The notes under the pieces were generated by a model that had not been told where the DNA came from, ran no database searches, and saw only the letters and a program-made list of their open reading frames with translations. A DNA stretch of 14,032 bases from a virus. Each line of letters starts with the position of its first letter. Within the stretch, counting starts at the first letter, position 1. Positions 1-14,032 of this stretch are shown here, piece after piece. Location: UHGV virus genome UHGV-0332040. The stretch is one strand, 5' to 3'. A program made the position numbers and the translations under genes.

Positions 1-1
1 A

Positions 2-415
2 TTAGTGCGCACTCATACGCGCCATGTTCAACACCTTCCGCACAGAGGTTTCAGACACGCCAACCTTACTTGCAATGTAACGATTCTTCTGGCCTTTTGC
101 AGAGCGCTCGATAATGTCAGCGCGTACTGCCTCAGTGATCACCTTGCGGGGTCTGGCTCGATTCTTCTCGTGCCGTTCACGTTCGCGCATCCGCTCGGCC
201 ATCTTCGGCGGCAGCACAGGGGAAAGCCCACGGCTAACGCCAGAGGTGCGGGTGTCGGACGTGGCAGCTCGGGCAACGATATAAACCACTTCGTCTGGAT
301 TGAAAACGTGCTGCACACGCTCAGGGTAAATGTGGTCGCATCTACCCAGCGGCAAGGCGAAATCCGGGCGCACGTCAGCGACACGCTCCACGGCATGGAA
401 ATTACAGGTACTCAT
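2..415 (-). CDS. HTH-domain DNA-binding protein, C-terminus runs off the window (partial)
   Basis: ORF with ATG at 415 and GAGG 8 nt upstream; no stop before the window edge. Translation contains an HTH-like stretch (IIERSAKGQKNRYIASKVGVSETSVRKVL). Function not assignable from sequence alone. Confidence 0.5.
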   Translation of the reverse strand: MSTCNFHAVERVADVRPDFALPLGRCDHIYPERVQHVFNPDEVVYIVARAATSDTRTSGVSRGLSPVLPPKMAERMRERERHEKNRARPRKVITEAVRADIIERSAKGQKNRYIASKVGVSETSVRKVLNMARMSAH

Positions 416-554
416 TAGGAACCTCGGTTAATTAAAAACAGGCTTTTAGATGCCGCGCAGAATGCAGCTTGCGGGGACTCATGCGCTTAGATTGGTGTGG
501 TAGTACCGGGTTGGAGCGCACTCAGTCTTGCAGGGCGCATTCCACCGTTGGGCG

Positions 555-1241
555 TTAGCGACCAGCACGTTTGCCAGCGGAGCGCTGCGCAACCAGAGCG
601 CGGTATTGAATGTCGTACTGGCGATGGCCGGGGCCATACCCTGATTGCTGCGCCCACTGCGAAAGCTGATCATACGCTGCAATAAACTCAGCATGAGACA
701 TACCAACAGGTTGCGAGGCAGGCTGGCCGTATGGGTTCCCCTGTGATGGGACATAACCAGTCGCAGTGCCTGCGGCCATACGCTCTTGCAGATAATGAAC
801 CGCCCGCTGCATCTGCGCAGGGTCGCCAGACATAACCATCCGTTCAAGGGTTGATTGCGTCCCGGCGTCGAGCGTGCCAGCGTACTGCAACATCGCGTCA
901 ACTGTACCCTGCCCTAGCTGGCTTTCGACAGACTGGTGAAACTGCCCCATCAGCCCATGAAGTTCAGGAGTCAACTCAACAGTAGTGCCATCCTGTAATT
1001 GCAGTGTGTCGCCCACTTGTGCAGCAACATCAATCTGCTGGTCTTGCTGGTTGGCAAAGTTACTTTCGCTCCAGCTTTGATTAATGTTCGCTGGCTGCGT
1101 TTTCAGGAAATCAGCATCAGGTGTTGTCTGGTCGAATCGGCTAGCGCCGTTGTCAGCACCTACAGGTGCGGCCATGTACGGCGATTGCTGCGGCGCAGTA
1201 TCAGCGCCCGAAAGATATGGATTAACATTCTGGTCAGCCAT
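555..1241 (-). CDS. Hypothetical protein, Q/G/A-rich, 228 aa
   Basis: ATG at 1241 preceded by AGAGG SD inside the upstream gene; 2-nt gap to the upstream stop. Low-complexity Gln-rich composition; no recognisable catalytic motif. Confidence 0.55.
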   Translation of the reverse strand: MADQNVNPYLSGADTAPQQSPYMAAPVGADNGASRFDQTTPDADFLKTQPANINQSWSESNFANQQDQQIDVAAQVGDTLQLQDGTTVELTPELHGLMGQFHQSVESQLGQGTVDAMLQYAGTLDAGTQSTLERMVMSGDPAQMQRAVHYLQERMAAGTATGYVPSQGNPYGQPASQPVGMSHAEFIAAYDQLSQWAQQSGYGPGHRQYDIQYRALVAQRSAGKRAGR

Positions 1242-1243
1242 GA

Positions 1244-1483
1244 TTATGCAACCTCTTGTGATGTAACTCGGCGATGTGCCAGTTCAAGTAAAAGCATGTG
1301 TGCGTGTACGCAGCGTGGGGGAATCATCTTCTGACCGTGGTACGCCTTGCAGAGATCTTGTCTGTCAATTTGATACACACGAGCCAGATCGATTTGGCGT
1401 AGATTCAAGGCATCAGCAATGAATTTCAGTTGTTGCCCGCACTCCACCGCGCGGCGCGGCTCCATTAAAATGATGGTGCTCAT
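1244..1483 (-). CDS. Hypothetical small protein (79 aa; start revised to internal ATG)
   Basis: The track ORF 1244..1525 overlaps the upstream gene. The internal ATG at 1483 (MSTIIL...) has a GAGGA SD about 8 nt upstream and sits just after the upstream stop at 1498. Confidence 0.5.
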   Translation of the reverse strand: MSTIILMEPRRAVECGQQLKFIADALNLRQIDLARVYQIDRQDLCKAYHGQKMIPPRCVHAHMLLLELAHRRVTSQEVA

Positions 1484-1497
1484 GAAATAATCCTCAG

Positions 1498-1731
1498 TTA
1501 GATAAGGCCATGACGACGCAACCAACGTCGCTCGCCAACGGAGCCACGCGGTCGCTGCCTTGGGTTCTGGTTTGGTGCTTGGCCGGGATCAGTTCGTCCT
1601 TCCCCGGACAGGTTCTGTGTCAGCACATCCCAGCCGCGTGATTCAAACGGGGCGTATCCCTCGCGCTGTTCGTCAAGGTTCACATAGAGATCAGGGTTAA
1701 CGGCAGGGTGCAGCGGTTCGTTCTCTGCCAT
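1498..1731 (-). CDS. Hypothetical protein, 77 aa
   Basis: ATG at 1731 shares one base with the TGA stop of the upstream gene (TGATG), suggesting translational coupling. The GTG at 1734 reported by the ORF track is less likely. Confidence 0.5.
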   Translation of the reverse strand: MAENEPLHPAVNPDLYVNLDEQREGYAPFESRGWDVLTQNLSGEGRTDPGQAPNQNPRQRPRGSVGERRWLRRHGLI

Positions 1732-2291
1732 CACTTAGCCCCGAATCGCGTGTTAACATCTTCCAAAATATCGGGGTAGCTCCAGCGGTTACGCATCAGG
1801 CGCAGGACATGAGCAACAGCCTCAACAGAGATCCCAAGCTCTCCAGCGATCTCGGTTTGTTTCCAGCCGAAGCGCTCCAGCTTGTGCATCTGATCGAGGT
1901 CGGCGCTCAACAGGCGGCGCATCGTCTGAGGTTTCTCAGGCTTCGCTTTAACAGCTTTCGGCATCGGGTGGGTGTGGGCGTTGCTAAAGCGGGAATGTGC
2001 GATAGCCAGCACAGTCTCAGGGCGAATCAGCATATCGCGGGCAATCATAAACTCTGTATCGCGGTGCAGCTTGCCGGGCTTATAGCGGCTGCGGATGGCG
2101 TTGTACTCCGCCAGAGTGATATCAGCATCGTCTTTCCAATTTTCGGCCAAGTCATCGACATAGACGCCACGGATTACAGCATCAATATCGGTCAGGGTAT
2201 GACCTGTCTCCGCTGCAATCTCTTCATTGTTCTTTAGGTGCTTATGAGCCAGCGTGTTAATGCGCTGGATATCGGTAATGCTCAAAGTCAT
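1731..2291 (-). CDS. HTH protein with C-terminal sigma-70 region-4-like motif (regulator or DNA-binding packaging/replication accessory)
   Basis: 186-aa ORF; C-terminal WKQTEIAGELGISVEAVAHVLRLMRNRW resembles region-4/LuxR-type HTH. The start overlaps the upstream stop (ATGA). Confidence 0.6.
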   Translation of the reverse strand: MTLSITDIQRINTLAHKHLKNNEEIAAETGHTLTDIDAVIRGVYVDDLAENWKDDADITLAEYNAIRSRYKPGKLHRDTEFMIARDMLIRPETVLAIAHSRFSNAHTHPMPKAVKAKPEKPQTMRRLLSADLDQMHKLERFGWKQTEIAGELGISVEAVAHVLRLMRNRWSYPDILEDVNTRFGAK

Positions 2292-2464
2292 ACATTAAAC
2301 TCCGAATCAAAATTGATCTGGTCAGTAACCAGCGAATGAATCAGCGCAAGGCTGGATGCGGTATGTGTGCCCGACTTGCGGGCGTTGTCGTACATGAAGC
2401 GGGCTACACGTTGATATTTCTCCGGCAGCGTGGCGAACCATTGCCGGAACTGTTCGGGGGTCAT
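2288..2464 (-). CDS. Small hypothetical protein, 58 aa (not in supplied ORF track)
   Basis: Hand translation of the minus strand from ATG at 2464: MTPEQFRQWFATLPEKYQRVARFMYDNARKSGTHTASSLALIHSLVTDQINFDSEFNV. It fills the otherwise empty gap 2292-2460 and has ATGA overlaps with both neighbours. Confidence 0.4.
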   Translation of the reverse strand: MTPEQFRQWFATLPEKYQRVARFMYDNARKSGTHTASSLALIHSLVTDQINFDSEFNV

Positions 2465-2670
2465 TGGTCGTCATCCTCCGGGAACACGTTGTTAAAGGTT
2501 GTATCAGGCGAGTCGGCGGCGTTCTGCTTGAGGAAGTTCACGCAGGATGACAACTCGGCAGCAGCCATGCGTGACTCTCCCGCCTCGTCCTCCTTAAGCC
2601 TGCGCGTCAACGCACCCAGCAGCAGGGTTTTTAGTTCCCATGCTCCGGCTTCAAATTCAGATTTCGTCAT
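2461..2670 (-). CDS. Hypothetical small acidic protein, 69 aa
   Basis: ORF in an operon with ATGA overlaps at both ends (2667-2670 and 2461-2464). Confidence 0.5.
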   Translation of the reverse strand: MTKSEFEAGAWELKTLLLGALTRRLKEDEAGESRMAAAELSSCVNFLKQNAADSPDTTFNNVFPEDDDQ

Positions 2671-3098
2671 TGGTGGTTATCTCCAGTTAGTCCCATTGCA
2701 CGCAAGTGTTGAATGACCTCGGCATGTACTGGTTTTGGTAAAAACAGGCGACGCTGCACGGATTGAAGTATCTCGTCGCGCGTCTTGTCGGCAGGGTGAA
2801 CAGTCCCATTAAAGACCTCACGAGCCATGCGATAGGTCGGCCAAAGGCGAGCGCCATCCTCCCTGCGACGGAATCTATTCAGCACAGCGGCCAGACACTC
2901 CCACGGCTCACAGTTATTGAGCAGGCAATACCGCTGTAGCGGTGTCGTTGCCCGGCGCATGATGGCTTCACGATTAAGGGTCTGAATATGACGTTCGGCC
3001 AGTCCGTCGAATGAATAGCCGTTCAAAGCAAAGGCGAGCTGCGCATTAAGCAGGGCGTCAGAACGCCCCGCACGATGCAGTGCGGTTTCATCAGGCAT
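2667..3098 (-). CDS. Hypothetical protein, 143 aa
   Basis: ORF on the same strand about 43 nt downstream of the helicase stop; ATGA overlap with the next gene. No recognisable motif. Confidence 0.55.
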   Translation of the reverse strand: MPDETALHRAGRSDALLNAQLAFALNGYSFDGLAERHIQTLNREAIMRRATTPLQRYCLLNNCEPWECLAAVLNRFRRREDGARLWPTYRMAREVFNGTVHPADKTRDEILQSVQRRLFLPKPVHAEVIQHLRAMGLTGDNHQ

Positions 3099-3141
3099 AA
3101 GGATTCTCCAGAAAGGAATTTAAACAGGCGAGCTGGTCAGC

Positions 3142-5031
3142 TCAGAGGAAGCGGGAGATGTAACCCCAATTGCAGTTTTCAGGGCGGTACAACGCTGCCA
3201 GCTCATCAGGTACACCGGACGGCACCGGGGCAGAGTCGGCGTCATAGGTGATGGGGTCGCCATACAGAGCCAACGATGACCACAGCAGAAAAGCACGGGC
3301 AGGTTGACCGTCACGCCCGGCACGTCCGATCATCTGAACTAAATCGGGCAGGTCTTCGGGAACATAAGTGACAATTACGTTACGCACGCCAGAGATATCA
3401 GCCCCCAGCCCGAAGGCTTTAGTAGCAATCAGAACCGCGCCGGGCGTGCTGGCAAACCACGCAGCGTTAGCGTGACGCTGGTCGCGGCTCAGTCGCTCAA
3501 CGTCAGAATGGTAAGGCCGGGCGCGGTCTCCCAGTTCGTTGAGATACGCATACAGCATCTTGATACTGTCCACCATCACCAGCGTCTTCTCATCCAGCGG
3601 GAGGGCATCGACCAGACCAACGGCAGCCCGGCGCGTAGTTGCGCACTGCTGAACAGGAATAAGCTGGATGTTTTCACGGGCAGCACTGGCGCGGTAGGTG
3701 AGGAACTCGCCACGACAGCCAAGCTCTTTCATCAAGCCAGACTCATCACCTTTTCGCAGGGTCGCAGTAAACGCGCACCGCTGAGCATCCGGGAAGGCAT
3801 TTTTCAGGGTGTGTTTCATTGCAGGGAAAGCGTCCCGGAACTCCCATTCATCAACGGTATGAACCTCGTCAATGATAAATCTGTCCACACCAGCGGCCAT
3901 CAGCGCAGCCAGCACCTGATTGCCCGGCACCAGATGCTCAGGTGAAACTACGGCAACGTGGAAAGCGCCAGCAGCCAACCCCGCAAGCTGTTGCGCATTG
4001 CGTCGCCTCGGCAGCTTGTCGCCAAAGGCAACAGCGTGAACGCCAGTTTCTAGCAACTGCTGTAACACCTGCTGCTTGATGGTGTTTGTAGGCACAACAA
4101 TAACGGTCAGACCGTCATCAGAATCAGATTCAAATTGCAGGGCATAGGTGAATGCAGCCGTCTTTCCGTACCCGGTTGGCAGTACGGCCAATACATCGCG
4201 GTCACGGGCAAATACGGCGGCAGCTACGTCCTGCTGGCCGGGTCTCCAGTCTCTGCCATCTAGCGGTGGTAACGGTACGAATGCCGGGCGGTCGCATTGC
4301 TCCAGCTCGCGGAACCTGTACGGCGCGGTAACCAGCGGCGGGATGGACGGCGGCAGGCCAGCACCCCCAACGTCACAATGCAGATTCAGCGTATTGAATT
4401 TATCATCCGTGGGTTTCAGCTCACCGCACCACAACTGACGGAAAGCCGGGCAGTCACCCAGTCGCGTAAAGTCAGCATGGCGCATAGCTTCCAGCTTGCT
4501 CATGCCGCGACTGATACGACGCACGATCTTCTCATCGCAAATCAGAAACTCACGGCAGGCTTTGAGGAAGGCATTCTGCCCGGTTGTCGCTTCCGGGATG
4601 GAGTGCTCGCGCGGTTTAAGCGCAGCGTCATCAACGCGAACGCCGGGGAAATCTGGCGGCAGCGGCTCGGCGTACCGGGCAGGCTTTTTGTTTAGCCACA
4701 TCTCCAGCTCAGCGCGGCGGCAGTGGATTGCATCGCCCGGCTGGATAATCTGGCGCAACCCGGCATCAGCGCGGCGGGAATGTCGCTTGCGGCCAATTCC
4801 ATTCGCCTCTTTCCATTCACGGAACGACATAACTGAACCATCTGCATTGTAGAAATACTGCCCGGAAACGGTGTTAAGCGCTGCCTTCACTGGTCGCTGT
4901 TTAACAGGGCATAACTTGGAATGAGGTATAACGATCTTATCCGCAACCAGTTGCTGAGCATCCGCAGGCTCGGTGTTCAGCGGTTCGGCGTCAGCGGCCA
5001 GCGTAAGCAAGCGGTTTAAATTGGTTGGCAT
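3142..5031 (-). CDS. RecQ-like superfamily-2 DNA helicase with an N-terminal domain of about 260 aa of unknown function
   Basis: 629-aa ORF. Helicase motifs read directly from the translation: motif I LPTGYGKT, motif Ia-like IVVPTNTIKQQV, motif II IIDEVHTVDEWEFRDAF (DExH with the RecQ-type W..FR signature), motif III FTAT, motif VI QMIGRAGRDG. GGAG SD upstream of ATG 5031. Confidence 0.85.
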   Translation of the reverse strand: MPTNLNRLLTLAADAEPLNTEPADAQQLVADKIVIPHSKLCPVKQRPVKAALNTVSGQYFYNADGSVMSFREWKEANGIGRKRHSRRADAGLRQIIQPGDAIHCRRAELEMWLNKKPARYAEPLPPDFPGVRVDDAALKPREHSIPEATTGQNAFLKACREFLICDEKIVRRISRGMSKLEAMRHADFTRLGDCPAFRQLWCGELKPTDDKFNTLNLHCDVGGAGLPPSIPPLVTAPYRFRELEQCDRPAFVPLPPLDGRDWRPGQQDVAAAVFARDRDVLAVLPTGYGKTAAFTYALQFESDSDDGLTVIVVPTNTIKQQVLQQLLETGVHAVAFGDKLPRRRNAQQLAGLAAGAFHVAVVSPEHLVPGNQVLAALMAAGVDRFIIDEVHTVDEWEFRDAFPAMKHTLKNAFPDAQRCAFTATLRKGDESGLMKELGCRGEFLTYRASAARENIQLIPVQQCATTRRAAVGLVDALPLDEKTLVMVDSIKMLYAYLNELGDRARPYHSDVERLSRDQRHANAAWFASTPGAVLIATKAFGLGADISGVRNVIVTYVPEDLPDLVQMIGRAGRDGQPARAFLLWSSLALYGDPITYDADSAPVPSGVPDELAALYRPENCNWGYISRFL

Positions 5032-5052
5032 GGTGCAAACTCCAGAGAAGGA

Positions 5053-5490
5053 TTAAATACTACGCGCCCAAGCTAAATCTTCGGGTGTCCGACTTTCGAT
5101 TAACGCTAACTGCCAGCGTAAGTAATCCTCATGTTCTTTGGTGTATCGGGGAATACCTATAGGATTTTTCACAGCGTCCGGGTTAGTCCTCGCGACTTCC
5201 CTGCAATCTCGGTCGAAAGCCCAGCGGGCAACTTCCACCGATTCGTAATCCGTAAATCGGTACGGCCTTGTGCGGGAACGTACACGCCAGACAACTTGCC
5301 CTAATTCGTGGATGTATATGCCGCAAAGTTCATCCGGGCTTGGGTGATACAATGGCTCCCCATAATTCTGGCGCATGAACTTCACAAACTTTTGATTGCG
5401 GCGGGCACGCCGTGCTTTTTCGCGTCGCTCCTCGGCTTCATACTCTTTTTGAATGGCGGCACGGTCTACCGGGATAAGTGTTTTGCTCAT
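5053..5490 (-). CDS. Hypothetical protein, 145 aa (first gene of the operon; start revised)
   Basis: The track ORF 5053..5667 has no SD at its first ATG. The internal ATG at 5490 (MSKTLIPV...) has GGAGA 7 nt upstream. Arg/Lys-rich N-terminal region. Confidence 0.55.
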   Translation of the reverse strand: MSKTLIPVDRAAIQKEYEAEERREKARRARRNQKFVKFMRQNYGEPLYHPSPDELCGIYIHELGQVVWRVRSRTRPYRFTDYESVEVARWAFDRDCREVARTNPDAVKNPIGIPRYTKEHEDYLRWQLALIESRTPEDLAWARSI

Positions 5491-5557
5491 ACAGTGATCT
5501 CCAGAAATTAATGTGAGTTTGGAACGGGGCGCAGGACGGAAGCGCCGGGAGTGTGGC

Positions 5558-5756
5558 AGTCTGTCCTCCTTAGTAGTTACCATCATTGCAATGGCGTCGG
5601 AGTTCTGTCTCTCTTTAGTAGTGATCTTCATCCAGTAATTTGGATTAAATGCAGACACGGCGGGCATTGCAGCGAGATGGAGAGTAGGCGGGCTTGCGGT
5701 TTCAGTCTGCCTTAGTACAAGTTTCTAGTGGTCGGTAGCCTTTCCCTTATTAGTAG
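5558..5756. repeat. Iteron/operator-like direct repeats with TTAGTA(G/C) core in the operon leader
   Basis: Plus-strand copies: AGTCTGTCCTCCTTAGTAG (5558-5576), GTTCTGTCTCTCTTTAGTAG (5602-5621), AGTCTGCCTTAGTAC (5704-5718), plus a core-only TTAGTAG at 5750-5756. All lie upstream of the operon start at 5490. Confidence 0.5.
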
Positions 5757-6024
5757 CTCTCATTTATCCGGGGCTTGTCTTCCCACACAGTAGCCGTCTT
5801 CTAAAGCAACCACACCACAATCCACTACTGGCAAGGAGTTAGCAGACACGGTGATGTAGGCTACTCAAGTGTGGATTTGTAGGCGTTTTATAGTATCTGT
5901 CCTTCTTATTAGACACCTTTAAATTTCATTAATAAATACAGTTAGTTAAACGGTTATCTTTATTACTTATAAATTTCACAGATCAATAAATTAAAATTGA
6001 TCGGAATTATCAGCTTTAATTTTC

Positions 6025-6053
6025 TTGACAGCTATTTGTATAATGGTTTTAAG
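6025..6053 (+). promoter_or_regulatory. Sigma-70 promoter-like hexamers in an AT-rich island (TTGACA 6025-6030; perfect TATAAT 6039-6044)
   Basis: Both consensus hexamers are present but only 8 bp apart, so they cannot belong to one promoter. TTGACA could pair with TTTAAG (6048-6053, 17-bp spacer), or TATAAT with a weak -35 upstream. No plus-strand ORF follows. Confidence 0.25.
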
Positions 6054-6222
6054 AAGTTGTATCGGAGTGAGCGACTGGCAGTGAGCGTAGCGAACGATAA
6101 GCCAGTCGGCGAAGAACGAAGAGTATGAGATGACTTGTCATCGAATACGATGAGTGATTGAGCGGTACGAACGGAGATACGCTGTATAACAGTTAGAACA
6201 GTTAACAAGCTGATTAATGCTT

Positions 6223-6387
6223 TCAATGATTATCTGAATCAGTGTTATCAATTCCGAAATAACTCTTCCTCTCCTGTATTGATTCAATCATTTCTTTCAT
6301 TTCAAGAATCACTACCAGCTCAGCTAATAACCGTCTCAGTTCAACATTTGAATCATTAGCACGACACTTATTTTCTGAGTATTCCAT
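6223..6387 (-). CDS. Small hypothetical protein, 54 aa, in AT-rich island (not in supplied ORF track)
   Basis: ATG at 6387 with GGGAG SD 8 nt upstream; translation MEYSENKCRANDSNVELRRLLAELVVILEMKEMIESIQERKSYFGIDNTDSDNH; AT-rich codons unlike the neighbouring genes. Confidence 0.3.
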   Translation of the reverse strand: MEYSENKCRANDSNVELRRLLAELVVILEMKEMIESIQERKSYFGIDNTDSDNH

Positions 6388-6479
6388 ACGGTCAACTCCC
6401 TACGGTATAAGTCCATTCCAATCCGTTCACAGATTACATTGCTGAATGATCATCAGACAAGTGGCAGTCATCATCACCA

Positions 6480-6800
6480 AGTTAGAGTCGTCTCGCTACA
6501 TATCCCCGCCGGATTGCCAGCGCGGCTAACACGGTTGTGAGGAGCGCCGAGCATCACAGCGGACGCAGGCCGATGAACGAGCCGTAGGTGAGTGAAAGCG
6601 GACTCGCGGACGCGAGAAGCGCAGCAGCAGGCGGCGACTGATAAACGAGCCAGACAGGTGAGTGCAAGCAGGCGTAAGCACTGCACCGTTGAGAGGTGTG
6701 GAGACGGCGGAACGTCTCCGCGTTAGGGAGGTGGATTTGGGGAGGATGTGCAAGGCACACCTCGCTCCACCCACGGGGTGTCGGTGGGTAGGGGTATAAC
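6480..6800 (+). other. T-depleted, purine-rich non-coding block with tandem repeats and GC hairpins (candidate ncRNA or protein-binding array)
   Basis: Stops in all plus frames; the minus frames are open only because that strand is A-poor. Hand count: 9 T in 6541-6660. Tandem repeat pair 6572-6599 and 6640-6669; palindrome CTCGCG-GA-CGCGAG 6603-6616; hairpins at 6700-6719 and 6769-6789. Confidence 0.35.
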
Positions 6801-6910
6801 GCTAATTGGTTAAGTGTACACATGTACGCTGAAATCATTAAAAGCCTATAGAAACAGCATGTAACCCAGCACCACGACATAACCAATTATCGTTGAACCC
6901 CCTCCCCGGC

Positions 6911-7246
6911 CCCACCCGGAATTTTTCAGTGATGAATCACTTCACAATCTGATCTCGATGTTCATCGTCTGGCACGGCTAAAGCCCCGCCATCTCTTCAC
7001 ATCGAGAGCCGCAAGTAATACGAAAATACATTATAAATCATAGCATTACGACATCGCGCATAACATAACGCTCTGAAATTAATACGAAAGCTGTAGGTCA
7101 TCCATCACCCACAGCCCAGTAACGGCCAGTGCTGGCACCTCATTTGGCTGTAGGTCAGCCCGACCCCACCGCCCAATAACCCCACCCGGCAGCAATGGCA
7201 CGGCACCAGACGCAGCGTAACGATCTCTGAGTTGATAAATCACTTA
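6911..7246. repeat. Cluster of paired short repeats in the C+A-rich non-coding block 3' of the serine recombinase gene
   Basis: CCCACCCGG at 6911-6919 and 7181-7189; TAATACGAAA at 7016-7025 and 7080-7089; GCTGTAGGTCA at 7090-7100 and 7147-7157; palindrome-containing TGATGAATCACTT at 6930-6942 and TGATAAATCACTT at 7234-7246. Confidence 0.45.
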
Positions 7247-7329
7247 GGGCAGCGTAACCCACACCCAACGGCTCACATCCTCGCAGAGAGGCTCACAGAT
7301 CACCTCGTGACATTTCACAGCATCAACCC

Positions 7330-7953
7330 TCAGACGCTGGCAGCCAGCTCACGCTTAATGCGGTAGAACGTTGCCCGGCTTATCCCGGCAGCTTTCATGA
7401 TGCGCTCCGGTTTCACACCCTGCGCCAGCATTTCCCTGACGGTCTCGCGAGCGGCGGCATCCTTCTGACTCCCACGATAAAGCCCCTCAGCTTTGGCTCG
7501 TTCAATGCCCTGCCGCTGGCGCATCAGTCGCGTCTCGTAGTCCACGCGGGCCATTGTAGCGAGGATATCGATCAGCATTGCGTTAACGGCTCTGAGGATG
7601 CCGCTGGTTAGCTCTGACGCGGTTTCGTTCAGCAACTGCCACGAGGTTGGCAGGTCAACGGCGACGATCACCAGCCCCTTATCCTGAATCCTCTGTTTCA
7701 GTGTCGCCCATTCCTTTTGTGTCAGGCGGCTTAGCCTGTCTATGCTTTCGACAAGTAGAACGTCGCCAGCCTCCGCCTCACCCAGCAGGCGCATCAGTTC
7801 AGGACGCTCCAGCCGCGCACCGCTGGCGTTCTCGATGTATCGCGCAGCAATAGACCAACCACGCTCATTAGCGAAATCCTCCAGCGCAGGAACGGCACGG
7901 TCGGCGTGTTGCTCGGCGGTGGATGCCCTGGCATACAGACGAACGTTATTCAT
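7330..7953 (-). CDS. Small serine recombinase (resolvase/invertase family)
   Basis: 207-aa ORF with GGAGGG SD. N-terminal catalytic motif YARASTAEQ (Ser11), LLVESIDRLSRL, and a C-terminal HTH (ISRATFYRIKRELA), typical of resolvase/Hin-Gin-type enzymes. Confidence 0.85.
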   Translation of the reverse strand: MNNVRLYARASTAEQHADRAVPALEDFANERGWSIAARYIENASGARLERPELMRLLGEAEAGDVLLVESIDRLSRLTQKEWATLKQRIQDKGLVIVAVDLPTSWQLLNETASELTSGILRAVNAMLIDILATMARVDYETRLMRQRQGIERAKAEGLYRGSQKDAAARETVREMLAQGVKPERIMKAAGISRATFYRIKRELAASV

Positions 7954-8536
7954 GATTCACCCTCCAAATCTCAGTGAAGTATCACATCCCGACATGAAGG
8001 AGATCACACTTAAAAACCGTGGTCAATAGGGTATAAAATAAATTTGATTGCGACAGCTTAGGCACATCACAATGCGGTATACCCGGATGAGACAGAGACA
8101 GCCAGCGGCAGACTGGCACCGAGTCACAGCAAAACCCCGGCGCACCCAGCGAACGCAGCGCAAAGCGCACACAGGAGATCAGCACGGCACCGCCACGATC
8201 TCGAAATCACAAAGGCGTTGAATCAAACATTGCAACCGCAGCAGTAACCAGCCAGCATTTCGCGCCTGCAACGGTTGTCTCGGATGAGCAAAATCTTAGG
8301 GTTTTCTCAGCGACCCCTGACGCGCGGGCACGCACATGCGCACGGGGGCGCGGGCGAGCTATACAGTTGAGGGAGGGGCAACCATAAGCGTGCAATTTTT
8401 CAAGCCGGGACTTTTAACAGTGGGATTGTGAGGCTATTTTGCATTCAGAGAGTGAGGCTGTAGGGTAGCTCCCCTTGAACCAGATAACGCTAAGCTAACC
8501 ATTTTCCCCACTGCTTAAGCCACTTTGCGTTGACGT

Positions 8537-9037
8537 TCAGCACCCCACAGCAGCATTATCCGGCATCAGAAACGGAATCAGTTTAGTATCACCATGCACA
8601 TATAACGGGTGCATAGGCTCTCCCGTTGCGTTAATTTTAAAACACTTCGTATCTACAGGAAGGAACGCCCGTACTACGGCAGAGCGTTTCAGGTGCCGCC
8701 CTTCATTCCCCCACGCAGCAACAACGATACCAGCACCAGCTATCAATTCTGCCAGATACTTATCATTATCCGCCCCGACAGGCTCCGGGAATCTCATCAT
8801 CTCAAAGCGGTCAGTACACACATACGCGAACAGGTTCGCGATACGTACCCCCCCGAAGCCCCAGCTCTGCGCAAATGAGATACAACGTTTCAGTGTGGGG
8901 TCGTCAAGCTCTGCGTCCGCATACGATGGATTCAAACCGATGAAAAGAGCATAAGGCTTTGCAGCGTCCCACGTTCTGGAAATAGCGTAACGGTACTTCC
9001 CGCACACAGAGAAGATCGCGTCTTTGTTCACATCCAT
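8537..9037 (-). CDS. DUF1643-like protein, 166 aa
   Basis: Translation carries the motif block I recall as characteristic of DUF1643 (CGKYRY...FIGLNPSYADAELDDPTLKRCISFAQSWGFGG). Assignment is from memory of the family signature, not from a search. GAGGG SD upstream of ATG 9037. Confidence 0.55.
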   Translation of the reverse strand: MDVNKDAIFSVCGKYRYAISRTWDAAKPYALFIGLNPSYADAELDDPTLKRCISFAQSWGFGGVRIANLFAYVCTDRFEMMRFPEPVGADNDKYLAELIAGAGIVVAAWGNEGRHLKRSAVVRAFLPVDTKCFKINATGEPMHPLYVHGDTKLIPFLMPDNAAVGC

Positions 9038-9671: not shown

Positions 9672-9920
9672 ATCGCGGTATGACCAGTGGAACGACCGCC
9701 AGCGCTTTGCTAAACTCCCTGTTCACCGTTCAACAAATCGCGGCAACTATCAGGGTAAATAGCGGTACTTTGGTCACATCACCTTAGAGCTAACTCATTG
9801 AGTTATAAGGCTTTTAATGGGCTGGAGCGGGCGAAGGGAATCGAACCCTCATAGCTAACCCATTGAATTGTGAACCAAAATAAGTAATCGCGGTACTTAT
9901 CCCGGTAGTTGGTAGCGGTA
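9672..9920. repeat. Candidate integrase arm-type repeats (ATCGCGGTA / GCGGTACTT family) on both sides of the att core
   Basis: ATCGCGGTA 9672-9680; ATCGCGGCA 9737-9745; GCGGTACTT 9762-9770; ATCGCGGTACTT 9887-9898; GCGGTA 9915-9920. Three copies lie left of the core and two lie between the core and the int start. Confidence 0.4.
9823..9850 (-). other. att core: 28-nt 3' end of a tRNA-Gly gene (T-arm, acceptor 3' strand, U discriminator, CCA); not a complete tRNA
   Basis: Minus strand reads GAGGGTTCGATTCCCTTCGCCCGCTCCA, which matches my recollection of the 3' end of enterobacterial tRNA-Gly(CCC) glyU. No D-arm or anticodon arm is recognisable 5' of it, so it is a fragment. Confidence 0.65.
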
Positions 9921-9938
9921 GATTACAAGGTAATTACC

Positions 9939-11165
9939 ATGCCAATCAAGAAGACTTCTTATCTTTATGCAAACAAAGATGGGATATTCATCTTTCAAAT
10001 CTTTATCCCGGTGTACATGCGCCACTTATGGCACGGGCGGCGCTCACTCAAGAAATCGACAGGCACGCGGGACATCATGCAAGCTCGCATATTCCGTGAC
10101 CAATACTTATTAGAGTTCCGAAAGCTCCAGCTCATGATGAAACCGGATAACCCTATAAACCGGATTCATTCTGCTATTTCAGATCTTCACTTACTGGCGG
10201 GAATATCCAGCGACATTACCGCGCCCGTAACTACTCCAGCAGAACGAGGGAAACCAGCGTCGCCAAAATTGACAGATGTCAGTAAAGAATATGCAGAGCA
10301 ATACAAAGATCGGCGCTCTTATTCCACATTGAGTAAATCCGCTCGCGCTGTATCAGCATTCACTAAATCAACTAAGCGCCCAACAATTACAATAAACGGA
10401 ATCGGGCGGCGGCTCGTCTCTGACTTTCTGAAAGCGAACCAAGATAAGTTTTCCCGGCAGACGATGCAAAACTGGTTAACTTGCTTAGGTACGCTGTACG
10501 ACTTCGCCCGGCGTAAATATGACAATATCGCCCCTGATAATCCCTTTCACGGCCACAATCTGGAAGCCCGTCAGACAAACGAAAGTTACCAGCCGTTTGA
10601 ACCGCACCAGCTACAGACATTAACAAAAAAGGCAGGTGACGAAATAAGGGATGTAATAATAATCGGGCTGTATTCCGGGATGCGTCTTGATGAAATAGCC
10701 AGCATTAAACGGGATGAGGTTGTCACCATCGACGGCGTGCGGTGTTTCTATGTCAGTAAATCAAAAACAAAGGCGGGTATAAGGCATGTCCCTGTACACT
10801 CGCTGTTATTTGACATTGTTGATAAATACCTCGCGCAAAACAGCGGGGAGTACCTGCTCCCCCAATCCAACAAAATTAAACGCGCGGATGGTAAACGTGG
10901 GCCGTGGTATTCTCAGACATTTACCCGCTTACGTCGCCGGGTACTACCAACAGCCACAGAGCGCCAGTGTTTCCACTCCCTGCGTGGTCACTTCATCACC
11001 TGCTTAGACCGGGCAGGTGTACCAGAACAGCGCATAGGAGCTATTACCGGGCATACAGAGAAAAAGGCAAAGACGGAAGCATTTAAAACGTACAGCCAAG
11101 GGGCTGGGATGAAAGAACTATCTGAATACGTAGAGCTGGTAAGTTATCCAGAACTTGAATCATAA
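9939..11165 (+). CDS. int: Tyrosine recombinase / phage integrase
   Basis: 408 aa from ATG 9939 (AAGG SD 9 nt upstream); the track start at 9909 is a TTG. C-terminal catalytic region has GMRLDE (Arg), HSLRGHFIT (H-x-x-R...H) and a C-terminal Tyr in FKTYSQG. Lies 89 nt from the tRNA-derived core. Confidence 0.85.
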   Translation: MPIKKTSYLYANKDGIFIFQIFIPVYMRHLWHGRRSLKKSTGTRDIMQARIFRDQYLLEFRKLQLMMKPDNPINRIHSAISDLHLLAGISSDITAPVTTPAERGKPASPKLTDVSKEYAEQYKDRRSYSTLSKSARAVSAFTKSTKRPTITINGIGRRLVSDFLKANQDKFSRQTMQNWLTCLGTLYDFARRKYDNIAPDNPFHGHNLEARQTNESYQPFEPHQLQTLTKKAGDEIRDVIIIGLYSGMRLDEIASIKRDEVVTIDGVRCFYVSKSKTKAGIRHVPVHSLLFDIVDKYLAQNSGEYLLPQSNKIKRADGKRGPWYSQTFTRLRRRVLPTATERQCFHSLRGHFITCLDRAGVPEQRIGAITGHTEKKAKTEAFKTYSQGAGMKELSEYVELVSYPELES

Positions 11166-11167
11166 TT

Positions 11168-11596
11168 TCAGGCAGGGTAAATAATCCCCAGCCCGCGATA
11201 CTGGCGGCGGTATTCTCTGACCAGAGCATCCGCCGTCGCCCTCGGCAGCTTCGCCATATGCCCGGTACGATAGCCACCCTCGGCAGAATTCGCTGCACGA
11301 TGTACAACAGCCCGCACGCGCCCGGTTCTGTGGTCGTGGTCGAGGGTCGTGCTGCTGAACGCAACAGCCCGCCCGGTAACGGCACACCGTCGATACTGAT
11401 AATTCCACAGAAAGCAACGCACCGCAGCCACGTCAGCACGGCGCAACTCCAGTCGCCCTGAACCATTCAACAGGAGGCGATACACATCGTCGAATGCAGC
11501 AGCGTTTCTAACGCGCTCAGCCAGCGGCATATTGCCAAGGAACTCCAGATAATCCCGCATTGCTTTTCTTAAAAGTTGGTCTGTCCGTGTAACCAT
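11168..11596 (-). CDS. Endonuclease VII-like (recombination endonuclease VII family, HNH-type) protein
   Basis: 142-aa ORF with GGAGA SD; motif CAVTGR...LDHDHRTGRVRAVVHRAAN resembles the DHDH-x-TG-x-VRG core of T4 EndoVII-family proteins. Confidence 0.55.
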   Translation of the reverse strand: MVTRTDQLLRKAMRDYLEFLGNMPLAERVRNAAAFDDVYRLLLNGSGRLELRRADVAAVRCFLWNYQYRRCAVTGRAVAFSSTTLDHDHRTGRVRAVVHRAANSAEGGYRTGHMAKLPRATADALVREYRRQYRGLGIIYPA

Positions 11597-11868
11597 GATT
11601 CAAAGTCTCCATTGTCAGACACAGCCCGCTTGCAGGCTTCGTATTCTTCGCGCTGGCGTTGGCATACCAGAGCATAAAGCTCATCAGCCACCGCATTTAC
11701 GCGCCTATCACTGATACCGTTGCGACGCATCTGCCCCAGCAGCTTACGAAATTCAGCCTCAAGCTCAGGCTCTCCTGTATCCATTACCCACTGTTTCAAG
11801 TCAGCGAGTGCGCCAGTCATTGGCGGCGGCTCGATGTACCGCCACCTTAATTTAATCGTCAAAGCCAT
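11569..11868 (-). CDS. Hypothetical protein, 99 aa (start revised to second ATG)
   Basis: AGAGGA SD directly abuts the first ATG at 11874, so the second ATG at 11868, 6 nt further, is the likelier start. Overlaps both neighbours on the same strand. Confidence 0.5.
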   Translation of the reverse strand: MALTIKLRWRYIEPPPMTGALADLKQWVMDTGEPELEAEFRKLLGQMRRNGISDRRVNAVADELYALVCQRQREEYEACKRAVSDNGDFESWLHGQTNF

Positions 11869-12277
11869 AAGCATTCCTCTTTATATCGTTTGCTCTCGCT
11901 TCACTGGCTTGTTTAAGCGTCATTCCTTCGATAGCTATATCCAGCAGTTCCTTTTGCTTACCAGCCAATCGCAAGGCGCTGTCTCTCCAGCAAAGCAGAA
12001 AGAAGATTGTCAGCACCTGTTTACTCAATCCATCCAGAAGATCGCCAAGTCCTTGATCCAGCAGACAGGCACGCCATGCAGCAGCGTGCTGCGTCATAGC
12101 ACCGACTATCGGGATAGGTGCGCCAAGCATCGTCGCAAGCTGACTCATAACACTATTAGCATCGCCCGGATGCAGCCGGGGAATAGTCATGCGGCCAGCC
12201 TGCGCCAACAGCTCGGCGTACCTCTGGCGACGTGGGTCATCACATGCCAGCGGTTTAATTGGCTTTTCATCAGCCAT
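11852..12277 (-). CDS. Hypothetical protein, 141 aa
   Basis: ATG at 12277 with GGAGG SD 9 nt upstream, immediately after the TAA of the HNH gene. Confidence 0.55.
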   Translation of the reverse strand: MADEKPIKPLACDDPRRQRYAELLAQAGRMTIPRLHPGDANSVMSQLATMLGAPIPIVGAMTQHAAAWRACLLDQGLGDLLDGLSKQVLTIFFLLCWRDSALRLAGKQKELLDIAIEGMTLKQASEARANDIKRNAYGFDD

Positions 12278-12295
12278 ATATGGAACCTCCGAGGA

Positions 12296-12823
12296 TTAGG
12301 CAGCCTGCAACAAATCGGCTGGCGTTGAGGGATGGTATCTGGCTTTAGCTTTTAGATAGGCAGCACGCGCCGCCGCTTCGGTTGTGAACAAGCCAAGGTG
12401 ATGGCGTACACCATTAACGCGAATGTAAGCCTCCCATTTACCAGAACAAGAATGACGGCTATATCCCTTCGCTTTGCGGTAGTTGTGCTGATTCTCCTGC
12501 GGTGTAACAGCGCGGAGGTTGCCCGGTCGATTATCGGCACGTACAGCGTTAATGTGGTCGATTTGCAGACCGTCAGGGATACCACCATTAGCAATGATGA
12601 AGGCCACGCGATGCGCATAAATCGAGTGCGTCCTGCCGTCGATGCGGACAGACACGCGCCGATACCCGGCGCTGTCCGTTGCGGTGTCAGCCAGTTCCCC
12701 GGCCTCAGCATAAATCCGCTTGTTGATTCCAATTCGGTCTACTGCATGGAACAGGCGGCCAGTCTCCGCATCGTATCGAAATAAAGAGCGTAGCAGCTCA
12801 GGGGCGTAAGCATCATTAACCAT
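12296..12823 (-). CDS. HNH homing-type endonuclease with AP2-like DNA-binding domain
   Basis: 175-aa ORF with GGAGGGG SD. HNH_3-type block GYRRVSVRIDGRTHSIYAHRVAFIIANGGIPDGLQIDHINAVRADNRPGNLRAVTPQENQHN, and an AP2-like C-terminal block SGKWEAYIRVNGVRHHLGLFTTEAAARAAYLKAKARYH. Confidence 0.8.
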   Translation of the reverse strand: MVNDAYAPELLRSLFRYDAETGRLFHAVDRIGINKRIYAEAGELADTATDSAGYRRVSVRIDGRTHSIYAHRVAFIIANGGIPDGLQIDHINAVRADNRPGNLRAVTPQENQHNYRKAKGYSRHSCSGKWEAYIRVNGVRHHLGLFTTEAAARAAYLKAKARYHPSTPADLLQAA

Positions 12824-12839
12824 GACTCAGCCCCTCCAG

Positions 12840-13835
12840 TTACACAGCTTGTCGGAAATTGATAACGCAGTCAGGGCGGCGCAGTCCAACATTGAACAGG
12901 CGATATGAGTCCATCACCATCGTCATTTCGCGCTCATCATCCCACTGGCGATTGATAACGCTCTGCGCTTCGACTGTCACAAGTACAGACGCAGGCCGGA
13001 ACAGCGTCGCCCGCGTCAGCGCTTCCTCTGAGGTAACGTCATAATCAGCGCCCAGTTCATGCCCGGTAATAGCTTCCTGCGGGTAACTGTTCAGCTCAAT
13101 GACTCGTACCCCAGCGACATAGCCAACTCGACGCCATGCGTAATCGTTGCCACTATCCCGGCTGTAACGGACGTTCATCAGCTTCTTATGTTCCATCAGG
13201 ATGCTGAACCAAGCCGGGTCGATAAGCAGTACCAGCTCGGCCACCGGAATATCTTTCTCAGTGAGAAAGCGATTAGCAGCCGCTTTTACGACGTGAGCCA
13301 ATTCGTTTGCGGCGTCCTCTTCGCTCCCCGCTGTCAGGTCGAGCGATACAACGTTATCCGTTAGTGGGTTAAACGTTGGTTGCAGTGTCGGCGGCGGTAC
13401 AAAGTCAGTCGCTTTGATTAGCTGGATGGTGTGCGCTTCGTCGTAGAATTTAGCGTGAGCAGTACCCATATTGCGGCTCAGCTCTGCGCGAAAGGTGGGC
13501 GCTGTCCAGTCGTCCTGATAGTCAATCGGAATGCGGATATAGCTCAGCGTATCCACAGAGATAATCAGCTTATCCGACTTAACAGCGGTAGGCTCCAGCG
13601 ATTGCCCTGCGGTTCTGCCCTTCACCTCCAGATCACCACTCAGGCGATCAATGCGGTATTGGTTGCTGGCTTTCAGCGGCCTGTATGTAGACAGCCCCTC
13701 TGCCAGAAATACGGATTTGGACTCTAAACGGGTCTGGACATCCCGGTCATAAGCCTCGATGTGAATATCATTGTCGGATTCCACCCCGCCATAATGTGGG
13801 CGAAACAGATCGGGACTGTACGAAGTATCAGTCAT
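12840..13835 (-). CDS. Major capsid protein, T7 gp10-like (HK97-fold family); start revised
   Basis: 331 aa from ATG 13835 (AGGAG SD 8 nt upstream). Several blocks align by eye with my recollection of T7 gp10A: KLIISVDTLSYIRIPIDYQD vs KVITIDGLLTADVLIYDIED, LLIDPAWFSIL vs FYCDPDSYSAIL, C-terminal YRLFNVGLRRPDCVINF vs YAMGHGGLRPEAAGAVVF. Not search-verified. Confidence 0.55.
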   Translation of the reverse strand: MTDTSYSPDLFRPHYGGVESDNDIHIEAYDRDVQTRLESKSVFLAEGLSTYRPLKASNQYRIDRLSGDLEVKGRTAGQSLEPTAVKSDKLIISVDTLSYIRIPIDYQDDWTAPTFRAELSRNMGTAHAKFYDEAHTIQLIKATDFVPPPTLQPTFNPLTDNVVSLDLTAGSEEDAANELAHVVKAAANRFLTEKDIPVAELVLLIDPAWFSILMEHKKLMNVRYSRDSGNDYAWRRVGYVAGVRVIELNSYPQEAITGHELGADYDVTSEEALTRATLFRPASVLVTVEAQSVINRQWDDEREMTMVMDSYRLFNVGLRRPDCVINFRQAV

Positions 13836-14032
13836 AAACAAAACTCCTACGTAGGTTGATGAAGCCCGCGCCATCGTCATGGCACAGACGTGCGGAATCC
13901 TCCCGCCGAGGCAGGATTCAGAACGGTATCGATTAAAGGGATGAGGTGCCCCGAAATGGGCGTTTTGAGGCCAGAGCTGGCGCGGTTCTCAGAGGTTAGT
14001 GCGCGTGAAGTAAGGCGAACGTATTACCTTGC

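Follow-up and report, generated by a model that had tools for sequence, protein, structure and literature searches.

Why should a capsid gene of podovirus type lie in a stretch of DNA that carries an integrase, and be followed there by nuclease genes rather than tail genes? The question is raised by UHGV-0332040, a viral genome sequence of 14,032 nucleotides (hereafter the window), in which an initial annotation had recognised a T7 gp10-like major capsid protein (MCP) gene and had offered two readings, a mosaic temperate phage or a capsid-encoding satellite-like element. Our analysis favours the second. The element is probably an integrative satellite of virulent Bonnellvirus-type podophages (Autographiviridae, with direct terminal repeats), which would bring its own MCP and scaffold and be packaged by the terminase of its helper.

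The excised element and its capsid gene

Positions 14032 and 1 of the window are adjacent in an integrated copy found in Escherichia coli 5735 (L001, NZ_CP154887.1). This copy is 98.9-100% identical to the window and circularly permuted relative to it: window 9822-14032 corresponds to L001 15001-19211, and window 1-8243 continues directly at L001 19212. Since the two ends of the window are contiguous in the integrated copy, the window represents the whole 14,032-bp element read as a circle and, judging from this permutation, is its excised (attP) form. The initial annotation had advised looking beyond position 14032 for scaffold, portal and terminase genes. There is nothing beyond, as the circle closes from 14032 to 1; a scaffold homologue lies inside the window, and genes for the portal and the large terminase (TerL) are absent. 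The tyrosine integrase and the tRNA att core which had been placed near the capsid gene are both genuine. The integrase is the sole gene on the opposite strand, converging on the others from the plus strand, and the start codon given to it in the annotated E. coli 5735 copy is the ATG at 9939. The tRNA-Gly core is a 24-nt direct repeat at both ends of that integrated copy, and window 9822-9853 matches the tRNA-Gly 3' end of strain 5735 over 32 nt. ARAGORN found no intact tRNA gene in the window, an Rfam scan of it gave nothing significant, and a scan for direct and inverted repeats gave nothing decisive.

The chromosome of strain 5735 holds a tandem array at this site. The element stands between two 99.98% identical copies of a 4.4-kb islet (L001 10548-15024 and 29561-34045), each encoding a 544-aa integrase, a DUF4145 protein and two hypothetical proteins. 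Islets and element are separated by the same 23-24 nt tRNA-Gly core, so that two unrelated islands share one att site.

The coding capacity of the element is that of a dependent entity. Pfam and PHROG scans, which covered all coding-strand open reading frames (ORFs) of at least 50 aa, and a tblastn comparison with phage Lidtsur detected no portal, TerL, tail, internal core, RNA polymerase, DNA polymerase or lysis gene. When all element proteins were compared with Lidtsur by tblastn, only the MCP, a small-terminase-like (TerS-like) protein (E=1e-3) and an EndoVII motif gave matches. The genome set typical of Autographiviridae (single-subunit RNA polymerase, DNA polymerase, portal, tail tubular proteins A and B, TerL) is thus not what the element carries; what it does have is the general equipment of a phage satellite, namely its own integrase, att sites and an excised form. 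The incompleteness of the virion gene set is general, as portal, TerL, tail and lysis genes are missing from every one of at least 13 related elements. The satellite-like reading therefore stands, for a complete 14-kb element with an MCP, a scaffold homologue and a TerS-like gene and without portal, TerL, tail or polymerases. That of a mosaic temperate phage does not, as the likeness to phages ends with the genes of the head module, the core of EndoVII and a single non-coding block of 88 nt. The initial annotation was confined to 12840-13835, and the scaffold homologue, the TerS-like gene, the junction block and the completeness of the element, all beyond these coordinates, escaped it.

The capsid gene itself is real and intact, and PHROG, PDB and structure searches all match its product to capsid proteins. 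The ATG at 13835 is preceded by a GGAG Shine-Dalgarno sequence 8 nt upstream; a longer reading from the in-frame ATG at 13880 (346 aa) was considered and is disfavoured because every homologue has 330-331 aa. The protein matches phrog_267 ('major head protein') with E=5e-69 over residues 1-328, as well as the solved podophage capsids 23sf (E=1.6e-79), 8eld of HRP29 (E=2.8e-75) and 8vb0 of PhiM1 (E=8e-61); no Pfam or NCBIfam model matches it. It is 54-56% identical to the MCPs of the Escherichia phages Lidtsur (56%), forsur, glasur and J8-65 and of relatives infecting Enterobacter, Kosakonia, Cronobacter and Pantoea, Lidtsur and J8-65 being classified as Bonnellvirus, Autographiviridae. T7 gp10 was not reached from the MCP by sequence or profile search. 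A Foldseek search with an AlphaFold2 model (pLDDT 66, pTM 0.67, the N-arm and E-loop having low confidence) retrieved HRP29 (E=1e-25), the PhiM1 capsid, T7 gp10 (3j7w, E=2.6e-8, TM 0.53, 15% identity) and HK97 (2fte, E=3.7e-6). As gp10 is reached by structure only, the label 'T7 gp10-like' is right at the level of virus family and fold and fails at that of sequence and profile, where the specific kinship is with phiKMV-like phages. By its sequence and its predicted model alike, the protein is assigned to the HK97-fold, phiKMV-like Autographiviridae MCPs (phrog_267 group).

Is this gene a recent acquisition? Eight chromosomal MCPs form a single clade with 100/100 bootstraps (computed as bipartitions, 100 replicates), sister to a Bonnellvirus/LIMEzero phage clade that is also recovered in 100/100. 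Members of the chromosomal clade share one-residue indels and are 58% identical across their deepest split. Their dN/dS is 0.08-0.13 at dS 0.3-0.5 (0.06-0.21 at the widest), like that of the phage pair Lidtsur and J8-65 (0.079). Furthermore, no other protein of the element is as well conserved as the MCP, which is full length and intact in every relative inspected and has at least 80% gene coverage in 58 of the 59 E. coli genomes that carry it. Phylogeny and substitution pattern point to an old functional gene of these elements, neither a recent capture nor a relic. Contigs of 6-16 kb with 40-50% identical MCPs (L013, L062, L077 and others) were tried as further relatives and set aside, being ordinary phage fragments with portal, scaffold, MCP and tail tubular genes.

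A near-perfect hairpin (GAATCCTGCC-TCGG-CGGGAGGATTC, 13900-13925, minus strand) is found about 70 nt upstream of the MCP start, in the 197-nt gap between an HTH gene and the MCP gene. An RNA processing site or a regulatory element is conceivable here, on the model of the DNA that precedes gene 10 of T7.

Junction block, scaffold and small-terminase homologues

A non-coding block of the element matches non-coding DNA of nine Bonnellvirus-like phage records, with up to 91% identity over 44 nt (E=4e-7 in 2.3 Gb of phage DNA). In the phages it occurs once per genome, in unannotated DNA, and in Lidtsur and J8-65 it lies just past the endolysin gene. The J8-65 record carries an annotation of 259-bp direct terminal repeats (DTRs), and in this genome the homologous stretch extends across the point where the right-hand repeat begins, from -38 to about +48 around DTR nucleotide 1. 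With a slash before genome nucleotide 1, the J8-65 junction reads ...CCCGGCTTGAAAATTGACTATTTGTGCGTGGGCCTCCC/TCGACCCGAAGGAGCGCCTGCGCCCCCGT... and that of the element ...CCCGGCTTGAAAAATTGCACGCTTATGGTTGCCCCTCCC/TCAACTGTATAGCTCGCCCGCGCCCCCGT..., the 44-nt core of the latter (8409..8366) being CCCGGCTTGAAAAATTGCACGCTTATGGTTGCCCCTCCC/TCAAC, with the slash at the position of nucleotide 1 of the J8-65 terminal repeat. From this alignment we predict a DNA end between 8371 and 8370, and a terminus that would run from window position 8370 as 5'-TCAACTGTATAGC... A repeated or dispersed promoter was considered as an explanation of the match and rejected, since the block is single copy in both J8-65 and the window.

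The conservation of the block among the elements is focused on the same boundary. A core of 41-45 nt ending at the slash is 95-100% conserved in 12 main-clade relatives, and the deep-branching L084 retains 93% identity over 29 nt; the flanks of the core are unalignable or only about 75% identical among relatives. In every element the serine recombinase gene follows the block at a distance of a few hundred bases, and the orientation of the block is that of the genes, as is the orientation of the repeat relative to the gene array in the phage. It is known that the T7 terminase needs a concatemer junction, and T7 plasmids with a concatemer junction were reportedly packaged into transducing particles (Chung and Hinkle, 1990, are said to have described this). 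We infer that the junction block is a mimic of the packaging and processing site of the helper.

The first 30 nt of the core (8380-8409) also match, weakly (93%, E=3e-3), unannotated DNA in three P2-like records, which include P2-EC53 (AJ512682) and R18C; this may reflect chance or a shared short motif.

At 100% identity the junction block is present in 147 E. coli genomes and the MCP gene in 59, so that about 88 genomes have the block without the MCP gene. These could be taken as a counter-example to a link between the two. We rejected this on the case inspected, CFSAN061761 (L123 11829-17000), which is a decayed remnant at tRNA-Leu (leuX) that keeps the cargo gene, the block and the resolvase, followed by an integrase and insertion sequence (IS) fragments.

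Two genes of the element point to head assembly and packaging. The first encodes a short homologue of head-scaffolding proteins, phrog_1018 ('head scaffolding protein') being matched by three of five members of the satellite scaffold family. When a profile of these five satellite scaffolds was aligned with one of 12 phage scaffolds by hhalign, the probability was 95.6% (E=1e-8), and the alignment comprised the last ~100 residues of both, out to the C-termini. The Lidtsur scaffold has 411 aa; that of the element is shorter and differs outside the C-terminal region. From the position of the alignment and from the two lengths, 411 and 228 aa, it follows that the element keeps the C-terminal region common to the phage scaffolds. 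In other phages the C-terminal part of the scaffold is the coat-binding part, and by analogy the retained segment would be so here. The second gene encodes a truncated TerS-like protein of the T7 gp18 family. PF11123 (DNA_Packaging_2) is also matched by three of four relatives of this 69-aa protein, at best with E=3.5e-5, and the protein is 48% identical over 44 aa to the N-terminal region of the Lidtsur TerS (pairwise E=4e-6).

The element family and its other genes

The MCP gene occurs once, on the chromosome, in 59 of 5,426 complete E. coli genomes, which include those of enteropathogenic E. coli (EPEC) E2348/69 and of NCTC11023. Representatives of several Enterobacter species and of Kluyvera ascorbata, Kosakonia and Trabulsiella encode MCPs with 93-97% identity; a further copy is found in E. 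cloacae (P0002), and a deeper lineage, with 58% identity, in E. hormaechei (P0007). The same layout is shared by at least 13 elements, whose hosts belong to five genera (Escherichia, Enterobacter, Kluyvera, Kosakonia and Trabulsiella); these are genera that yield Bonnellvirus-like phages, or close relatives of such genera. The layout comprises 20 genes and is intact, with all core genes under purifying selection. It runs from the junction block through the resolvase, the helicase, p143, the TerS-like gene, p58, p186, p78, p93 and the scaffold gene to, after the scaffold, an optional HTH gene, the MCP gene, an optional HNH gene, p141, p101, the EndoVII gene, a cargo position and the integrase.

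Integrases and att sites vary among these elements. Most are found at tRNA-Leu (leuX) and those of the window type at tRNA-Gly, with att direct repeats of 24-34 nt. The cargo between EndoVII and integrase is an AbiTii-domain protein in E2348/69 (L088 15668-16570) and an Eco47II endonuclease with its methylase in E. cloacae (L086 12693-14725). The two variable cargo positions, the one between EndoVII and integrase and the one between att and the junction block, look like hotspots for defence genes. Despite the differing cargo, the att-to-att length is 14,032-15,158 bp in 11 elements. The features of the window are collected in Table 1.

Table 1. Features of the window in order of position, with strand and the evidence for each assignment
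Feature	Coordinates	Strand	Evidence
C-terminal HTH protein, 137 aa, between scaffold and MCP genes	2..415	-	weak HTH_23 match
Short head-scaffolding homologue, 228 aa	555..1241	-	phrog_1018 E=5e-6
Small core genes around TerS-like gene: 143, 58, 186 (HTH), 78 and ~79 aa	1244..3098	-	ORFs
Truncated small-terminase-like protein, 69 aa, T7 gp18 family	2461..2670	-	PF11123 E=0.0026
RecQ/DpdF-like superfamily-2 helicase, 629 aa	3142..5031	-	DEAD + Helicase_C
Conserved non-coding block, ~260 nt	6899..7157	-	84-93% identical among main-clade relatives
Serine recombinase, resolvase/invertase type, 207 aa	7330..7953	-	PF00239 E=4e-25, HTH_7
Non-coding block homologous to Bonnellvirus concatemer junction	8323..8410	-	nucleotide match to phage DNA
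DUF1643 protein, 166 aa, cargo between att and junction block	8537..9037	-	PF07799 E=2e-38
attP core	9822..9847	.	= tRNA-Gly 3' end (TGGAGCGGGCGAAGGGAATCGAACCC)
Tyrosine integrase	9939..11165	+	PF00589 E=8e-10, phrog_1 E=1e-32
EndoVII-like nuclease, 142 aa	11168..11596	-	PF02945 E=4.6e-6, phrog_423 E=1.4e-13
Core protein, ~99-101 aa	11569..11874	-	no family match (Pfam, PHROG); conserved in all elements incl. L084
Core protein, 141 aa	11852..12277	-	no family match (Pfam, PHROG, PADLOC, NCBIfam); 76-91% conserved in main-clade elements
HNH_3 + AP2 endonuclease, 175 aa	12296..12823	-	PF13392 E=2e-17, AP2 E=1e-3, phrog_99 E=1e-50
MCP, 331 aa, HK97 fold, phiKMV-like/Bonnellvirus type	12840..13835	-	phrog_267, PDB capsids, Foldseek

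The order read by the initial annotation, an HNH/AP2 and then an EndoVII-like gene on the same strand after the MCP gene and no tail genes, is confirmed, with two ORFs lying between the nucleases; the 141-aa product of one of them has a dN/dS of about 0.2. The suggestion that the nucleases may be selfish homing genes probably holds for the HNH/AP2 gene. PADLOC labels its product a homing endonuclease (HEase), the gene is missing beside the MCP gene in the deep-branching L084, and HNH genes 38-45% identical to it flank the MCP gene directly on both sides in KP34-like phages of Klebsiella, for example at L080 9586-9984 and 11380-11754 and also in L028, L067 and L078. The MCP locus seems, from these neighbours, to be a recurrent homing site in the KP34-like phage group, and the HNH/AP2 protein is most likely a homing endonuclease lodged beside the MCP gene. 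Its dN/dS of about 0.3 indicates purifying selection, and we may speculate that it could also cut helper DNA without insertion. The EndoVII-like gene is instead a conserved core gene, present in all elements and with a counterpart in the putative helpers; its catalytic motif aligns with that of the Lidtsur endonuclease VII gp30. Processing of branched DNA before packaging would be a plausible role for this enzyme.

Neither the window, by megablast, nor the helicase, by translated search, has a close relative in the phage collection, and the same is true of the remaining genes (helicase, serine recombinase, small HTH proteins and DUF1643 cargo). The helicase, presumed to serve replication, has an N-terminal part of ~250 aa with no family match, and its match to the RecQ family is under the cutoff. 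It fits the PADLOC DpdF model PDLC02858 over its full length (1053 bits, E=0), and scores 108 bits against a cutoff of 550 with the NCBIfam DpdF model. No other dpd gene is present in the 14-kb element, which is thus no Dpd defence system; the PADLOC model may have been built from the helicases of these very elements, and spurious partial 'Dpd' calls could result. The serine recombinase gene is the first one downstream of the junction-like block in every element. Synteny of the small genes around the TerS-like gene is kept in all elements, and their family matches are limited to weak HTH ones. Two of the genes are variable: the 137-aa HTH gene is present in some elements and absent from others, and the DUF1643 gene is absent from most relatives.

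The conserved non-coding block at 6899-7157, best conserved at 6905-7040, is maintained even where the neighbouring resolvases are only 28% identical. It has a TATAAT-like box followed by a long hairpin, a predicted RNA fold with z=-3.0, and, in the copy of E2348/69, two compensatory base-pair changes. A regulatory small RNA, comparable to the CI RNA of P4, or a replication origin could reside here. Two 34-nt direct repeats lie at 7090-7123 and 7147-7180.

A candidate satellite of T7-family podophages

How could such an element be transmitted? The helper is sought among the T7-family phages because the element has capsid and scaffold genes of its own and a copy of a packaging junction, yet no portal, TerL or tail. 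Upon infection by the helper, the element would excise and replicate by means of its RecQ-like helicase. Its MCP and scaffold would assemble on the portals of the helper, alone (as in cf-PICIs) or mixed with the helper MCP (as with Ccm), into procapsids that would be small, probably T=4, and hold about one third of the helper genome. The helper TerL, guided to its site by the junction mimic, perhaps with help from the TerS-like protein, would then cut and package unit-length satellite DNA, and helper core and tail proteins would finish the particle. After injection, as for T7-like phages, reading of the genes would proceed away from the leading end; the serine recombinase encoded near this end may circularise the terminally repeated DNA, which the tyrosine integrase would then insert into a tRNA gene. 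Of the two nucleases, the HNH/AP2 enzyme, most likely a homing one, may in addition cut helper DNA, and the EndoVII-like enzyme would probably trim branched DNA before packaging. The candidate helper genomes are 40.8-42.5 kb long, and the elements amount to 0.33-0.37 of a helper genome. The same ratio of about one third is known for P4/P2 and SaPI1/80-alpha, where heads are T=4 instead of T=7. The small-capsid step, taken specifically, has nearly, but not quite, an even chance of being correct.

Several observations weigh against this satellite reading. The attP junction was absent from IMG/VR; the five metagenome contigs with the core block that were inspected appear chromosomal or integrated, and the only element-sized metagenome contig (L112) has no terminal repeat and shows the integrated gene order. 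When the intergenic regions of J8-65 and of the element were compared, visually and by local alignment with shuffled sequences as control, no helper-type promoter emerged in the element, the best result being z=3.2 on a 13-nt match, and this leaves late-gene expression after host shut-off without an explanation. The MCP is only 56% and the scaffold ~24-28% identical to those of the candidate helpers, so that compatibility with their portals is an assumption. The TerS-like matches are under the Pfam cutoff and the protein is truncated, and for the terminal repeat a counterpart was seen only for its left boundary. Finally, the small-capsid step is drawn from genome-size ratios and analogy, and trimers of the 14.0-kb element in heads of helper size would fit equally well.

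Could the head genes serve defence alone? The MCP, scaffold and TerS-like proteins might be dominant-negative decoys against Bonnellvirus-type phages, and the junction block might titrate their terminase, with no transfer in particles. The defence cargo of the relatives (AbiTii in E2348/69, the Eco47II pair in E. cloacae) fits this idea, as do the truncation of both scaffold and TerS-like proteins in comparison with those of the phages and the interference of known satellites with their helpers (PMC8569155). However, interference is compatible with transfer, so that the idea is a rival only in its 'no transfer' form, which accounts neither for the tight 14.0-15.2 kb range despite variable cargo, nor for MCPs that are 93-97% identical across five genera whose elements differ in integrase and att site, nor for the phage-like co-orientation of all genes downstream of the junction block. 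We consider it unlikely. The intact layout in at least 13 elements, including a lineage with a 58% identical MCP, and the purifying selection on all core genes are also hard to reconcile with a decaying remnant of an integrase-bearing temperate T7-like prophage. Integrase-bearing T7-like phages do exist, some marine cyanopodoviruses being examples, and the truly decayed copies at leuX, which keep only cargo, junction block and resolvase, show that decay occurs. Nevertheless, tblastn with Lidtsur revealed neither pseudogenes nor gene fragments for the portal, the tail or the RNA polymerase, and the non-structural genes lack close phage relatives; such an origin is highly improbable.

The two other explanations concern the MCP more directly. 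It might form a helper-free, tailless and portal-less HK97 'mini-virus' or an encapsulin-like compartment, and the combination of MCP and integrase with neither portal nor tail does fit the summary description of the small temperate HK97 entities of Aguilar et al. (bioRxiv 10.1101/2025.06.18.659913). The MCP is, however, of a typical podophage type, nearer to virion capsids than to encapsulins, and a TerS-like gene and a helper-type junction are intelligible only if another genome provides the terminase and the portal, which leaves very little room for this possibility. Alternatively, the MCP gene might be a non-functional passenger, co-converted into an unrelated island together with the adjacent HNH homing gene. 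KP34-like phages do have HNH homologues next to their MCP gene, and co-conversion of flanking DNA by homing has been described (PMC10055350). Against this, the MCP is the most conserved gene of the element and constitutes a separate, old clade. In the inspected relatives it is intact and full length, and nearly all E. coli carriers cover it well; L084 has it without an adjacent HNH gene, and the scaffold and TerS homologues accompany it at a distance of 1-3 kb. A mere passenger is as hard to believe in as a prophage remnant.

If the element is a satellite, which of the known kinds does it resemble? With P4 and its helper P2 (11.6 kb and 33.6 kb; T=4 and T=7 heads) it has in common a size of about one third of the helper, integration at tRNA genes including leuX, defence cargo and, for our element by prediction, use of the helper's packaging site. 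However, P4 lacks an MCP gene and uses the external scaffold Sid to remodel the MCP of its helper, a temperate myovirus, and no homologue of Sid, Psu, Delta or alpha was found in the element by Pfam or PHROG, so that it is not P4-like. Nor is it a classical phage-inducible chromosomal island (PICI), as there is no AlpA, Pri-Rep or primase match, an MCP is present and the candidate for replication is the RecQ/DpdF-like helicase. The closest precedent for a satellite with a diverged copy of a helper MCP is SaPIbov5, whose Ccm is a homologue of the capsid protein of its helper phi12 and leads to T=4 capsids (PMC8569155); SaPIbov5 likewise has a helper packaging signal, which for our element is predicted from sequence. 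Its helper is, in contrast, a temperate siphovirus of a Gram-positive host, and the candidate helpers here are virulent T7-family podophages with terminal repeats. Moreover, Ccm is placed in pentons only, alongside the helper MCP, and SaPIbov5 has no scaffold homologue of its own, whereas our element additionally encodes scaffold-like and TerS-like proteins.

The capsid-forming PICIs (cf-PICIs) are also integrative satellites of Enterobacteria, of ~15 kb, that make capsids from their own MCP (PMC12772148; 10.1101/2022.09.08.507074). They differ in carrying MCP, portal, protease, TerS, TerL and connectors and in stealing tails only; Pfam and PHROG found no portal, protease, TerL or head-tail connector in the element, which is hence not a cf-PICI. 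The PLEs of ICP1 and the PICMIs are, like it, chromosomal islands that exploit strictly lytic phages (PMC10945586, PMC10803314). Neither has an MCP gene: the PLE uses the external scaffold TcaP on the stolen coat protein of ICP1, a myovirus, and the PICMI, whose helpers are Vibrio phages, has no capsid-remodelling genes and is packaged as concatemers. With the Bonnellvirus phages Lidtsur and J8-65 themselves, the element shares a homologous MCP, the scaffold C-terminus, the TerS N-terminal region, the EndoVII motif and the sequence at the start of the terminal repeat, and in phage and element alike the genes read away from the junction end. It differs from them by having one third of their size, by lacking the genes for RNA polymerase, DNA polymerase, portal, TerL, core, tail and lysis, and by the addition of an integrase, a serine recombinase and a RecQ-like helicase.

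The satellite kinds recognised in an overview of December 2025 are P4, PICIs, cf-PICIs, PLEs and a jumbo-phage satellite, and the published helpers are temperate phages of ~40 kb, ICP1, marine Vibrio phages and a jumbo phage (PMC12772148). Our search of the full-text literature, whose coverage leaves out most subscription journals, found no report that links satellites with Bonnellvirus, phiKMV-like or T7-like podophages, and no mention of the RefSeq proteins of the E2348/69 and 5735 copies. What appears new in the element is thus the helper class and, for a phage satellite, the partial capsid module, though a prior description is possible. Taken together, these would be the first satellites of virulent podophages of the T7 family and would stand between PICIs and cf-PICIs: T=4 heads would form on stolen portals from the satellite MCP and a shortened scaffold, the junction mimic and the truncated TerS would redirect the terminase, the serine recombinase at the leading end would circularise the DNA, a small RNA may provide control or immunity, and the elements would spread among genera of Enterobacteriaceae on phages that target colanic acid. 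That every part of this scheme holds at once is a tentative proposal, possible rather than probable.

T7-like podophages are central models and common candidates for therapy, yet no satellite of them was found reported. Current annotation tools can easily mis-score the elements as 'Autographiviridae prophages' or partial Dpd systems. If the satellite reading is true, it would define a new class of helper and a new level of dependence, in which the satellite brings the shell and steals the portal, the motor and the tail, and it would come with a precisely predicted packaging cut site. The system would be tractable, because EPEC E2348/69 and NCTC11023 already carry the element and E. coli K-12 is a plating host of the candidate helpers. 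Such elements could lower the efficacy of Bonnellvirus-like phages and could move defence cargo between genera.

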